Assembly: GCA_964369665.1 (NCBI GenBank)
Contig: CAYJFS010000003.1
Span: forward strand, 180,081 to 244,080
Direction of reading: 5' to 3'
Source of the DNA: an uncultured Lawsonia sp.
GTDB lineage: Bacteria; Desulfobacterota; Desulfovibrionia; Desulfovibrionales; Desulfovibrionaceae
Length of the DNA: 64,000 nucleotides
Shown here piece by piece: positions 58,602 to 61,922 of this stretch. Under the pieces are notes generated by a model. The model worked only from the letters and a program-made list of their open reading frames with translations. It did no database searches and was not told the origin of the DNA. The position numbers were made by a program, and so were the translations under genes. Within the stretch, counting starts at the first letter, position 1. The number at the start of each line of letters is the position of its first letter.

Positions 58602-61600
58602 TTACTTATCAAATAGTGAACATTGATAAATACTCTTTTGTGTCTGTTGAACAAGCTGACTTCGTTGGAACATACCAGTGAGACTTGATAAAAAACTAGA
58701 TGGCTCAAGTCTCAAGGTCTTCCCATAAAACATACGCTGTTTTGCATAACTAACAAAAACTGCCTCTGAAGCTCGTGTTATACCAACATAAAAAAGCCTT
58801 CTTTCTTCAGAAATAAGATTTGACGTATTCATATGTTTATCTTGAGCCCCTGATAAAAGATGTTTCATACTTATAAAAGGTACAAGCCCTTCTTCTAATC
58901 CAGGTAAAAATACAGCCTTAAATTCTAAGCCTTTTGAAGCATGTATTGTCATAATTTGTACATGCTCTGCCTGATGCTTTATAAGATCAAACTCTTGACG
59001 TAAACAAAGCCATTCTAATAAGCTACCCCAAGATCCATGTATTGAATAAGCTTGAACAAGGGCTTTAAATTCCTTTGTTTCACGAAAAAGAGCATCAAAA
59101 GGTGGAACAGGCTCTAACCATGATAATAATACAGAAGGACCACCATTCCAAACATGACTAGCAATAGAAGAAGGATCTGGCACTGTTTGCACACCAAAAG
59201 GTTTACCCAGCTTCCTACCAGCAAGACCTAATAATAAAGCAACTCTATGCTCTTTCCAAAAAGGTTCTTCTTCTGGAACAACACATGGTATACAAAAACG
59301 CTCTAAAGACTCTTGAATAGGCTGAATAATACTTTTTACTCTAACAAGTATTGCAATATCTCCTGGACTACATGTGCCTGCTAAACAATGTGCATCACTT
59401 TGTACAGCTGCATCCATAAATGTATGCGATGTAGCTCCAATAAGCCGTGCTATATTATTTGCAATCCAAGATGCTTCACGTCGATGATCTGGAGCTGAAA
59501 AAAGACGTAATAAAGCTTTTTTTTGACGTGTCGAAATAAGACTTTTGCTTTTCATTGCTGAGCCAAGGACTGCAGTAGCTGATGAAGTAATTTCTGCAGC
59601 AGCCCGATGACCTTCTGCAATACCTATTATTTCCAAATGAGACCAATTTTTAGTAAATAGTGAAGCAACATCAGGATGTGCACCTCTAAAACTGTAAATA
59701 GCTTGATCTGGATCACCAATACCAAAAAATCCTGATCCAGAACTTGGAACCAACTGCTTAATCAAAGCAACTTGTAATGAAGAAAGATCTTGTATTTCAT
59801 CCACTAAAACAGCTTTCCATTGATGCTTTATATTGCCTGCTTGCAATGCATACAGCCACTGTTCTAGTAAGTCGCTGTAATCTGCCATATTATGAATATC
59901 TTTATATTGACGATAACATTCAAGCATAGGGATATAGGCCTGCTCAGGCAATGCTTCTGCAGGCACTTGTTTTTCTCTAGCTAACATTAACATATTCCAA
60001 GCTGTTCTAAGCTTTTGATGATCAAGGTTTTCATTTGCTTTAATAAAAACCATTTGTGCAGCCTCTTCAGAAAGAATCTGAGGCTGCTCTTTAAATGTAA
60101 ACTTAGGCCAATGTGCTAAAGCCAATGCATGCAATGTATCTACATAAGGAAAGTGAACATCTAAAGAATGTTGAACTCGTGACTTAAGCTCTTCTGCAGC
60201 TCTTCTACTAAATGTTACAACAAGAATATCTTGTGGATTAATCTTTTGGCTTAAAAGATAGGAGAGTCTTCCAATTAGTGTATGTGTTTTCCCTGAACCT
60301 GGACCTGCAAAAACAAGAATAGGATGAGGACCTGCTCTAATTGCTTGTTGCTGTGATACTGTATACAAAAGCTTCAATGATGTTGGTATATCTTTATTTG
60401 TTGACCCTAAAAAATTTTGTTGTATACACTGATTTGTAACTAAAGCATTTTGAGCAACACTTTTTTCTTGTCTCATAGGCATAAAACCTGTTGATTCAAA
60501 AAGTGGCATTACTGTATATACTTGCTCAGGTTTCTTATCATATTTTTTTTTATTACTTGTATTGCTGATACCAAAACTTCTGCCACTTTTTGCCCTTAAA
60601 AGGACTCTTTCAGCTTCATCAAAAACTCGAATAACGCCATATTCACCATCATAACCACCTTCACGTATAACTTGACCACAACGCATTCGTGCAATTGCCT
60701 CACCAAGTAAATCCCAATGTTGACGTAAATCTCCCTCTGGTACTACATGCAAAATATCTAATTCTGCACCAAATTTCTGAATTAATGAATAATAATTTTC
60801 TAAAACTTTTTTACTTTTTGAGCCAACACAAAGCAGTTCTCCTAAAATTTCTGTAAGTGGGATAAATGGATAAAATGGAGGTGCCCCTTTAGGTCTTTTA
60901 GGCTCTGTTCTATCTGCAAGTTCAAGAACTCGGTGTAATACCCCAATAGTAAGAGGCCTAGAACAATGAGGACAAATATTCCCTAATCTTAGAGAATCTC
61001 GAGGTTCAAGGACTACCCCACAAGCACGATGCCCATCTAAATAATATTTCCCTTCATCTGGGAAAAATTCAACTGTACCTACATAACGAACACTATCTGT
61101 ATCTATGGCAGTACCTGATGCAGAACGACGCAATGCATCAAAAATACCATAATATGAGGGTAGTCCTGTAAAAAGATTGGCTTCTCGACCTAAATTTTCA
61201 CCTGAATGTGCATCTGAGTTGGAAATTAATGCACAGTGATCCAAATGACTCCAAAGTCTATTCATATCTGGATCAGAAGAAAGACCTGTTTCTAAAGCAA
61301 ATATATGTGAAGTTAAGTCTTCAAAACATTCATTGAGACTATTGAATCCTGATTTTGAACCAAAAACAGAAAACCATGGTGTCCAAATATGTGCAGGAAT
61401 TAAAACAGCTCTCTCATCAACCTCTAATACAATTTCTAATAAATTTCGACTATCTAAGCCAAGTATAGGTCTACCATCTGAATGCAAATTACCTATAATT
61501 TCAAGTTTACGAGCTAATCTTTCTGTACTCTCAAAATTAGGCATACATACAATATTATGCACTTTGCGCACAGCTCCATTTTTTTTATAAATAGAACTGA

Positions 61601-61922
61601 TTTCTCCTTGAAGAATAAATAATGGCTCTGGACTTGTTCCAGGTAAATCTAACTCAGGTATTTGAGTATTAAAAAATGTTTTATCCCATTTTTTAAGCTT
61701 ATACAGTCCAGAATGCTCATCATACACAAGTGCATCTTGTAATTCTTTTCTCCATAAAGGGTGTGTAATATCCCCTGTTGCAACAACAGATATGCCCTTG
61801 ACTAAACTCCATGCTGCCAAATGTGGTACGGTAAGTTTTTTACTTGTTGCTCGAGAATAACGAGAATGTATATGTAAATCTGCACGAAAAATACCCATAG
61901 AAACGCCAACAGCTCCACTCAA
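58602..61922 (-). CDS. fusion protein: N-terminal Endonuclease-Q-like PHP nuclease with Zn ribbon (aa ~13-435) + C-terminal UvrD-type SF1 helicase (aa ~517-1106)
   Basis: N-terminal half: ADLHIHSRYSRATS, ATGDITHPLW, IPAHIWTPW, ETGLSSDPDM, SNSDAHS..NLGREAN, GKYYLDGHRAC...CPHC...GVLHRVLELAD and GGYDGEYGVIRV all parallel the P. furiosus EndoQ sequence as I recall it. C-terminal half: Walker A AGPGSGKT, motif II VDEIQD, GDPDQAIYSFRGA, HASKGLEF and YVGITRA. It is one uninterrupted 1106-codon frame. Confidence 0.8.
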   Translation of the reverse strand: MSGAVGVSMGIFRADLHIHSRYSRATSKKLTVPHLAAWSLVKGISVVATGDITHPLWRKELQDALVYDEHSGLYKLKKWDKTFFNTQIPELDLPGTSPEPLFILQGEISSIYKKNGAVRKVHNIVCMPNFESTERLARKLEIIGNLHSDGRPILGLDSRNLLEIVLEVDERAVLIPAHIWTPWFSVFGSKSGFNSLNECFEDLTSHIFALETGLSSDPDMNRLWSHLDHCALISNSDAHSGENLGREANLFTGLPSYYGIFDALRRSASGTAIDTDSVRYVGTVEFFPDEGKYYLDGHRACGVVLEPRDSLRLGNICPHCSRPLTIGVLHRVLELADRTEPKRPKGAPPFYPFIPLTEILGELLCVGSKSKKVLENYYSLIQKFGAELDILHVVPEGDLRQHWDLLGEAIARMRCGQVIREGGYDGEYGVIRVFDEAERVLLRAKSGRSFGISNTSNKKKYDKKPEQVYTVMPLFESTGFMPMRQEKSVAQNALVTNQCIQQNFLGSTNKDIPTSLKLLYTVSQQQAIRAGPHPILVFAGPGSGKTHTLIGRLSYLLSQKINPQDILVVTFSRRAAEELKSRVQHSLDVHFPYVDTLHALALAHWPKFTFKEQPQILSEEAAQMVFIKANENLDHQKLRTAWNMLMLAREKQVPAEALPEQAYIPMLECYRQYKDIHNMADYSDLLEQWLYALQAGNIKHQWKAVLVDEIQDLSSLQVALIKQLVPSSGSGFFGIGDPDQAIYSFRGAHPDVASLFTKNWSHLEIIGIAEGHRAAAEITSSATAVLGSAMKSKSLISTRQKKALLRLFSAPDHRREASWIANNIARLIGATSHTFMDAAVQSDAHCLAGTCSPGDIAILVRVKSIIQPIQESLERFCIPCVVPEEEPFWKEHRVALLLGLAGRKLGKPFGVQTVPDPSSIASHVWNGGPSVLLSWLEPVPPFDALFRETKEFKALVQAYSIHGSWGSLLEWLCLRQEFDLIKHQAEHVQIMTIHASKGLEFKAVFLPGLEEGLVPFISMKHLLSGAQDKHMNTSNLISEERRLFYVGITRASEAVFVSYAKQRMFYGKTLRLEPSSFLSSLTGMFQRSQLVQQTQKSIYQCSLFDK

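Follow-up and report, generated by a model that had tools for sequence, protein, structure and literature searches.

What might a bacterial protein do that holds an Endonuclease Q (EndoQ)-like nuclease at one end of a single reading frame and a UvrD-like helicase at the other? The question is raised by a 64,000-nucleotide stretch of DNA from an uncultured Lawsonia sp. (assembly GCA_964369665.1, contig CAYJFS010000003.1, positions 180,081 to 244,080; the whole of this stretch is called the window here), in which one uninterrupted open reading frame (ORF) occupies 58602..61922 of the minus strand and ends in a stop codon at 58602-58604. An initial annotation had described this frame as unbroken, as the ORF list bears out, and had read it as an EndoQ-type nuclease with PHP and Zn-ribbon motifs, joined through a low-complexity linker to a helicase of superfamily 1 (SF1). 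From sequence and structure modelling, we are close to certain that the gene is a bona fide fusion of EndoQ with an SF1A helicase and a member of a catalogued long-form bacterial family. We further think it reasonably likely that this single polypeptide would act as a clamp-tethered, coupled nick-and-unwind repair enzyme for deoxyuridine (dU), deoxyinosine (dI) and apurinic/apyrimidinic (AP) sites.

Counted from a TTG at 61922 the frame encodes 1106 amino acids (aa), and residue numbers refer to this frame unless 1098-aa numbering is stated. The true start is probably the ATG at 61898, giving 1098 aa, because of the upstream sequence, the N-terminal consensus MxxFRADLHIHS of 70 homologues and the 1098-aa database entry P0001. 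The parts of the gene are given below, with predicted local distance difference test (pLDDT) values from an AlphaFold2 model.

58602..61898, minus strand: EndoQ-UvrD-like fusion gene, whole; 1098 aa from the ATG at 61898
60588..61898, minus strand: Endonuclease Q module, aa 9-445, with PHP-type catalytic, Zn-ribbon and C-terminal helical domains
60375..60581, minus strand: disordered low-complexity linker, aa 448-516, about 70 aa, pLDDT about 30
58656..60374, minus strand: SF1A UvrD/PcrA/Rep-like helicase module, aa 517-1089, from Pfam, Foldseek and motifs
58605..58655, minus strand: flexible C-terminal tail, aa 1090-1106, LVQQTQKSIYQCSLFDK; pLDDT 63 then 54, without secondary structure in the model
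58611..58625, minus strand: putative beta-sliding-clamp-binding pentapeptide QCSLF, aa 1100-1104 (consensus QL[SD]LF)

The nuclease and helicase modules

Sequence, profile, residues and fold agree on the N-terminal half, which, judged by its sequence and its model, is a genuine EndoQ-family module with catalytic and lesion-pocket residues intact, as its PHP and Zn-ribbon motifs had led the initial annotation to propose. Among sequences in the PDB, phmmer matched PfuEndoQ (5zb8) with an expectation value (E) of 6.8e-45, aligning query residues 13-62 and 119-438, and found its substrate complexes (7k30-7k33) at about 3e-44; a profile built from 27 EndoQ modules matched 5zb8 at E 2.5e-70. Foldseek superposed the model on 5zb8 with a template-modelling (TM) score of 0.86-0.87 and a root-mean-square deviation of 2.9-5.5 Å, and on the dU-DNA complex 7k30 with a TM score of 0.83. 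The three-domain fold is thereby shared with the archaeal enzymes (PfuEndoQ/TkoEndoQ; 5ZB8, 7K30; TM 0.83-0.87) at about 29-30% identity. The NCBIfam model TIGR00375 (MJ0043/EndoQ family) recognised the module at E 1.3e-42 and 146.5 bits, in contrast to archaeal EndoQ below the equivalog cut-off of 326.6; by sequence, the window protein is best placed as a homologue in a diverged bacterial EndoQ subfamily, outside the archaeal-type equivalog. Close free-standing relatives carry the NCBI name 'endonuclease Q family protein', and Pfam PF27218 (MJ0043_C) is precomputed on all homologues. The Pfam copy searched here was one without PF27218, and the EndoQ half gave only a faint PHP_C match in it, because the library is old and not because the EndoQ domain is absent.

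The following segments carry the residues that matter for catalysis and lesion recognition.

61866..61880, minus strand: PHP motif I DLHIH, aa 15-19; metal ligands D15 (Pfu D6), H17 (Pfu H8) and H19 (Pfu H10), invariant in 124/124 fused sequences
61557..61604, minus strand: E107...H122; H122 aligns with the metal ligand Pfu H84, and E107 is the inferred counterpart of Pfu E76
61374..61397, minus strand: PAHIWTPW, aa 176-183; H178 (Pfu H139, in metal site and pocket), T181 (Pfu T142) and W183 (Pfu W144)
61203..61292, minus strand: ETGLS (211-215) through SNSDAHS (234-240); lesion pocket and metal ligands
60963..61031, minus strand: Zn ribbon H298-x2-C301...C317-x2-C320; C249, C252, C268 and C271 in PfuEndoQ

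Crystal structures and mutagenesis of PfuEndoQ define the roles of the metal ligands and the lesion pocket (PMC5961232; PMC8307549). In the HMMER alignment, E211, G213, L214 and S215 take the places of the pocket residues Pfu E167, G169, L170 and S171, and N235, D237 and H239 those of Pfu N191, D193 and H195, which belong to pocket and metal site. The metal-ligand His and Asp residues are all present: H17, H19, H122, H178, D237 and H239 align directly with the identical archaeal ligands (H8, H10, H84, H139, D193 and H195), and these six and E107 are invariant in 124/124 fused sequences, that is, the window protein and 123 representatives of 50%-identity clusters. The lesion pocket (Pfu H139, T142, E167, G169, L170, S171, N191 and D193) is invariant or nearly so family-wide and identical throughout in the window protein, as is W144. 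All four Zn-ribbon ligand positions are filled, with His, which is also Zn-capable, replacing the first Cys, and all four vary little or not at all in the 124 fused sequences. The window protein further differs from archaeal EndoQ in an insertion of ~20 aa between PHP motifs, variable in the family. A variable insertion lies between the first PHP strands and the E107 strand (aa 62-107, nucleotides ~61602-61739); it is 45 aa long here (family median 40), has no aligned counterpart in PfuEndoQ, is weakly conserved and is partly helical in the model.

The SF1 UvrD/Rep motifs reported for the C-terminal half were located, are conserved in the family and are accompanied by significant matches to Pfam UvrD-helicase PF00580 (E 3e-46, 158.7 bits, cut-off 23) and UvrD_C PF13361 (E 8e-32, 111.5 bits, cut-off 25.6). 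They comprise Q524 and motifs I (539-546), Ia (570-579), II (707-712), III (736-748, GDPDQAIYSFRGA), V (992-1001) and VI (1043-1051, in the region LFYVGITRA). All seven of these motifs are nearly invariant family-wide, and the R of motif VI is kept in 121/124 fused representatives. The two nucleotide-binding motifs read as follows.

60285..60308, minus strand: Walker A AGPGSGKT, aa 539-546, with K545; K in 124/124
59787..59804, minus strand: Walker B (motif II) VDEIQD, aa 707-712; D in 124/124, E in 123/124

Foldseek matched the modelled helicase to UvrD, PcrA and Rep at E of about 1e-37, with TM scores of 0.61-0.66 normalised on the target. With these enzymes (2IS6, 4C2T, 1PJR, 1UAA) the window protein shares all SF1 motifs, the 1A/1B/2A/2B-type fold and both Pfam domains, whereas identity is 21-28% and the spacing between motifs IV and V, which spans the 2B domain, is shorter (127 aa here versus 172 aa in the window's own canonical UvrD in a BLAST alignment; on slightly different endpoints, 133 aa here against a family median of 163 aa). 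The Tudor-like C-terminal extension of UvrD and PcrA is absent, and the window protein has instead an N-terminal nuclease and a clamp-binding-type tail. NCBIfam scores fall well under the respective cut-offs (PcrA 209.5 bits versus 911, Rep 203.5 versus 951, UvrD 183-192 versus 965-1144). The initial annotation had called this helicase additional to a canonical uvrD in the window, with uvrC also present; both genes were located, and the helicase half is 28% identical to that UvrD. On these sequence comparisons, the helicase half is taken to be a distinct paralogous clade, neither an orthologue nor a copy of UvrD, PcrA or Rep. Covalent union of an SF1A motor with a nuclease is also known from AddA, RecB and AdnB, where similarity is confined to the motor: AddA and RecB bear a C-terminal PD-(D/E)XK nuclease that processes ends, in contrast to the N-terminal PHP/EndoQ-type nuclease here, which is predicted to make a lesion-specific, single-strand nick.

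The AlphaFold2 model, built on a 71-sequence alignment (mean pLDDT 83.8, predicted TM score 0.69), resolves two modules with confidence and leaves the linker between them disordered and the C-terminal tail flexible. The low-complexity linker had been noted before and is real: its disorder in the model covers residues 440-508 in 1098-aa numbering, and in the alignment of the fused family its columns have a conservation of 0.08-0.17 and 60-70% gaps. Between residue 432, where the EndoQ fold ends, and residue 524 in the Q motif of the helicase, the chain runs 92 aa; across the family this span varies from 35 to 214 aa, with 73 as the median.

Distribution and descent of the fused form

Full-length homologues number more than 100 at 99% coverage and 47-63% identity, from Bilophila, Mailhella, Nitratidesulfovibrio, Avidesulfovibrio and other Desulfovibrionaceae, and those of the Desulfovibrionaceae bear the NCBI name 'UvrD-helicase domain-containing protein'. 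The protein records searched held no entry identical to the window protein. The nearest full-length protein is a 1101-aa fusion, 63% identical, at locus L001 (Logan ERR14042354), on a contig with 34% guanine plus cytosine (GC) whose gene order (hypF, fusion, DedA, asnS, DHH, maf, uvrC) is that of the window; the best reference-genome match to the EndoQ module, 66% identical, belongs to Candidatus Bilophila faecipullorum. The source lineage appears to be an under-sampled low-GC (about 34%) member of the Desulfovibrionaceae, and, set beside the long forms of that family (47-66% identical over 99% of its length), the window protein is a new low-GC (about 34%) orthologue.

Beyond this family, the rarity implied by the initial annotation is not borne out by the searches. 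The EndoQ module gave 3417 matches at E<=1e-3 among 1.84 billion cluster representatives (50% identity), with 2205 at <=1e-10 and 946 at <=1e-30, and 123 of the best 150 of the 3417 are >=1000 aa long. A scan of one genome per GTDB species found the module in at least 600 species. The best 80 loci from that scan, surveyed for fused and split arrangements, divide as follows.

58/80: complete in-frame fusions, in >8 phyla
7/80: running off the contig, 5 of them already into the helicase
12/80: free-standing, ~406-456 aa, without a helicase within 5 kb
3/80: split or frameshifted, halves adjacent (L019, L084, L085)

The complete fusions come from Desulfobacterota, Acidobacteriota, Melainabacteria, Spirochaetota, Rhodothermaceae, Caldilineaceae, Myxococcota, Pirellulaceae and Actinomycetota, and the fused form is the dominant form of this EndoQ clade among its closest relatives in many phyla. 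Free-standing bacterial EndoQs (Bacillus pumilus/B. subtilis, and ~420-450-aa forms from Geobacteraceae and others) share the same EndoQ module, up to about 55-57% identical to that of the window; the Bacillus enzyme is reported to nick at dU, dI and AP sites. In our sample, close relatives of this kind differ from the fused form in having neither a helicase nor a terminal clamp motif.

Two-ORF versions occur at L004, L006 (6001-9098), L019, L084 and L085, as overlaps, breaks inside the helicase or adjacent genes; in Geobacter anodireducens (L004, 6001-9205) the EndoQ ORF overlaps a UvrD-type ORF by 80 nucleotides. These may be fissions, programmed frameshifts or sequencing errors. Such split or frameshifted versions, together with the low complexity of the linker, are what could be said for an artefactual origin of the window gene, in which an endoQ and a uvrD paralogue would have been joined in the linker by an assembly or sequencing error. 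We nonetheless reject an assembly-made fusion and give an artefact of either kind a negligible chance: the reading frame is continuous across the junction, with no stop or frameshift, 58 independent reference genomes and >100 metagenomic proteins (99% coverage) show the same in-frame fusion, and the closest relative, L001, has the same gene, 1101 aa long, in the same synteny.

A neighbour-joining tree built from the EndoQ modules, without support values, intersperses free-standing with fused forms; this pattern suggests an old fusion from which the helicase was repeatedly lost or split off. The window sequence groups in the same tree, likewise without support values, with Bilophila and other Desulfovibrionaceae. 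EndoQ has reportedly been sorted into three families 'based on the domain organization' (Shiraishi 2017, Biosci Biotechnol Biochem, as a citing 2018 paper has it). The window gene is an ordinary vertically inherited orthologue, with nothing specific to an AT-rich genome. The earlier rationale, which tied the enzyme to deamination pressure in AT-rich DNA, is rejected because the fused loci span 33-73% GC (median 58%).

Gene neighbourhoods vary between genera. Clustering of flanking ORFs at the 80 loci yielded no flanking family that recurs across phyla, only shadow ORFs and lineage-restricted synteny, and with no conserved partner gene beside it the fusion protein seems to be self-sufficient. 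Within the fused gene of GC-rich loci among L007-L086, long shadow ORFs (antisense or in another frame) mimic conserved neighbours and are composition artefacts. The EndoQ module had no match in 50,697 phage genomes and one in 72,556 plasmids, at 27% identity, on a 733-kb Brevibacillus replicon (a chromid).

This distribution bears on the suggestion, made in the initial annotation, that the protein restricts foreign DNA. In such an anti-phage system, which would resemble Gabija, EndoQ would nick invading DNA that contains uracil or is otherwise deaminated, and the helicase would unwind or break down that DNA. A review has suggested an antiviral role for Bacillus EndoQ (PMC8307549), and the helicase half matches the PADLOC models for GajB at E 1.6e-55. 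The GajB matches, however, reflect generic UvrD-family similarity, no better than the PcrA or Rep scores, and the EndoQ half has no PADLOC match. Unlike Gabija (GajA/GajB), the window gene has no adjoining gene for a GajA/OLD-family nuclease, its neighbours being hypF, a DedA/VTT gene, asnS and maf; neither a defence-island context nor a neighbour recurring across phyla was seen. With the phage count at zero, the plasmid count at one, the window placed in the EndoQ-module tree as vertical descent predicts, and a tail of a type typical of replication and repair proteins, restriction is disfavoured and we consider it highly improbable.

The C-terminal tail and a proposed nick-and-unwind mechanism

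The protein ends in ...QKSIYQCSLFDK, and this terminus, which the initial annotation did not mention, is probably a beta-clamp-binding-type peptide, putative as yet and judged by its resemblance to QL[SD]LF, the established bacterial beta-clamp-binding consensus (as cited in PMC4858679). Searching the last 14 residues for QxxL[FLW], we found the motif in 174/214 full-length relatives, in 97/123 cluster representatives (commonest form QLSLF) and in 42/58 complete fused ORFs of reference genomes from many phyla. Internal 14-aa windows of the same proteins give a chance rate of 0.65%, which makes the C-terminal enrichment about 100-fold. Short or split ORFs did not end in the motif at any of 14 reference loci, 1/77 short proteins did, and it was not found in the window's canonical UvrD. 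In orthologues from the Desulfovibrionaceae (P0002-P0065), a basic segment, ~F[QR]xSRLVRHT[QK], lies just upstream of the clamp pentapeptide; the window version is FQRSQLVQQTQK (aa 1090-1106, 58605-58655), and the segment could belong to an extended clamp- or DNA-binding tail.

Neither the clamp motif nor the architecture is new. Beta-clamp motifs were reported in bacterial EndoQ homologues by Shiraishi 2016 (Sci Rep), whose Suppl. Fig. S1 places them at positions about 941-1244 in long forms from Bilophila wadsworthia, several Desulfovibrio, Geobacter metallireducens, Caldilinea, Rhodothermus, Sorangium, Zymomonas and others, and in some ~400-460-aa bacterial forms as well. The clamp motif of long bacterial EndoQ is thus already catalogued there, and the fusion architecture is not novel, since long bacterial EndoQ homologues stand in that figure and in databases; the text of Shiraishi 2016 does not mention the helicase nature of these homologues. 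Long forms such as those of B. wadsworthia (WP_005028539) and Desulfovibrio vulgaris (WP_012612878) have the same architecture, terminal QxxLF, taxonomic group and length class (about 950-1244 aa) as the window protein, with no difference of kind. In archaeal EndoQ, a C-terminal PCNA-interacting-protein (PIP) box binds PCNA with a dissociation constant (KD) of 55 nM, and ring-shaped PCNA stimulates cleavage (Shiraishi 2016). Both proteins end in a clamp-interaction peptide, with the difference that the window's putative one is of the beta-clamp type and lies ~650 residues further on, past the whole helicase.

The invariant nuclease residues and nearly invariant helicase motifs imply that both activities are under purifying selection. 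Nuclease module, motor, tether and terminal clamp-type peptide are retained as a set over large phylogenetic distances. The cut made by EndoQ falls immediately 5' of dU, dI, deoxyxanthosine (dX) or an AP site and yields 3'-OH and 5'-phosphate ends (PMC4357722), and by analogy the window protein would be expected to incise 5' of the same lesions. One branch of the repair model first drawn up for EndoQ already has the damaged segment taken out 'by helicase activity' (PMC4357722). From its family membership, the helicase half would be expected to translocate 3'-5' and to unwind duplex DNA. SF1A enzymes translocate 3'-5'; in mismatch repair UvrD unwinds DNA starting at nicks, and in nucleotide excision repair (NER) it removes the complexes left after incision. 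We infer that the two activities are coupled, and propose the following sequence of events. First, the tail would attach the protein to a beta clamp (DnaN, whose gene lies outside the window) that remains on DNA, a step with a parallel in archaeal EndoQ, where the PIP box binds PCNA and cleavage is stimulated. The nuclease half would then flip out a dU, dI or AP site and cut immediately 5' of it, producing a 3'-OH and a lesion-bearing 5'-phosphate. Next, the tethered 3'-5' helicase would load at the nick and, most likely tracking along the intact strand, peel off the lesion-bearing 5' end and free the nuclease from its product; UvrD in 5'-nick-directed mismatch repair and PcrA at RepD nicks are the models for this step, and MutH/MutL-UvrD shares with it the presumed start of unwinding from a repair nick. 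Finally, a polymerase would extend the 3'-OH, a 5' nuclease or flap activity would remove the displaced strand, and ligase would seal it. Also in favour of coupling are the housekeeping, chromosomal context and the split or frameshifted forms in which both halves stay adjacent (L004, L019, L084, L085).

The same helicase half could serve differently. As an unlikely alternative, the SF1A motor might be a translocase or turnover factor and not an excision helicase, with Pol I nick translation doing the excision; along those lines, and with no better odds, it might move EndoQ along DNA to scan for lesions, or strip from DNA the tightly product-bound nuclease or other proteins, RNA polymerase for example. 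Three papers present SF1A monomers as processive translocases on single-stranded DNA that are poor helicases unless activated (PMC13238157, PMC13365976, PMC13646824), a fourth has UvrD in NER releasing UvrC and the excised oligonucleotide (PMC2997466), and the motif IV-V spacing, shorter than in the window's UvrD, counts for a translocase as well. On the other side, all motifs are conserved, including those that bind DNA, and the fold matches DNA-bound UvrD and PcrA; the sequence data fit translocation and unwinding alike.

Several observations weigh against nick-and-unwind coupling itself. Nuclease specificity, helicase polarity and clamp binding of the fused members are all extrapolated. The AlphaFold output carries no inter-domain information and none on the placement of the helicase at a nick. 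The window motif QCSLF has Cys at position 2 where the consensus has Leu and is followed by two more residues, and about 20-28% of family members are missing the strict motif. Free-standing EndoQs ~55% identical occur without an adjoining helicase (L005; 12 loci), which means that the helicase is dispensable for EndoQ function in some lineages. The equivalence to Pfu E76 rests on inference, the segment being skipped by the phmmer and profile alignments. The first Zn ligand is His and not Cys, a family trait found in 123/124 fused sequences and also invariant in close free-standing relatives. In agreement with the initial annotation, a search across 8.3 million papers, most subscription journals excepted, turned up no biochemical or genetic work on the fused form.

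The locus and its meaning for bacterial repair

The fusion gene lies in a same-strand run with hypF, a DedA/VTT gene and asnS; the intergenic gaps are short, and a terminator scan around the gene found no convincing terminators between these four. The window neighbours are hypF, the DedA/VTT gene, asnS, a DHH gene, maf and uvrC, and three of the other genes in the window concern us here.

61979-64000, minus strand: hypF (carbamoyltransferase); the frame runs on to the window end, and the ORF list gives an internal 632-aa piece
18573-20687, plus strand: canonical UvrD/PcrA-type helicase uvrD, 704 aa; PF00580 at E 2.9e-71, PF13361 at E 1.7e-54
52642-54504, minus strand: uvrC, 620 aa, syntenic in the closest relative L001 too

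A truncation or frameshift of hypF upstream of the fusion gene was considered and rejected, as the translated frame continues to the window edge. With uvrD and uvrC in the same 64-kb window, the genome keeps standard NER beside the EndoQ fusion. GC skew is negative in all 2-kb bins of the window (1-64000; cumulative -5.25), and this uniformity places the window on one replichore, with a C-rich plus strand.

The window adds another orthologue, and nothing unique, to a widespread family. EndoQ is usually described as archaeal and present in 'a few bacteria', whereas here it is found in at least 600 bacterial reference species, with the closest relatives mostly fused to a dedicated UvrD-like motor that has a clamp-docking tail. 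We suggest, more tentatively than for the enzyme itself and at below even odds, that many bacteria (at least 600 species, >8 phyla) may possess a repair pathway that is coupled to the beta clamp and independent of glycosylases, in which one polypeptide would recognise a deaminated or abasic nucleotide, incise 5' of it and itself unwind the damaged strand. With the same reserve, that pathway might be viewed as doing in one protein what MutS/L/H and UvrD, or UvrABC and UvrD, share out among several; it possibly acts on clamps behind the replication fork, removing misincorporated dUMP or dIMP. The architecture is catalogued, and the pathway as proposed would be new. If the coupling is real, the family would provide bacteria with a compact and widespread route for removing uracil, hypoxanthine and AP sites, one that is missing from standard accounts of bacterial base-excision and nucleotide-excision repair, and it would offer a tractable single-protein model for the handover of a nick to a helicase.

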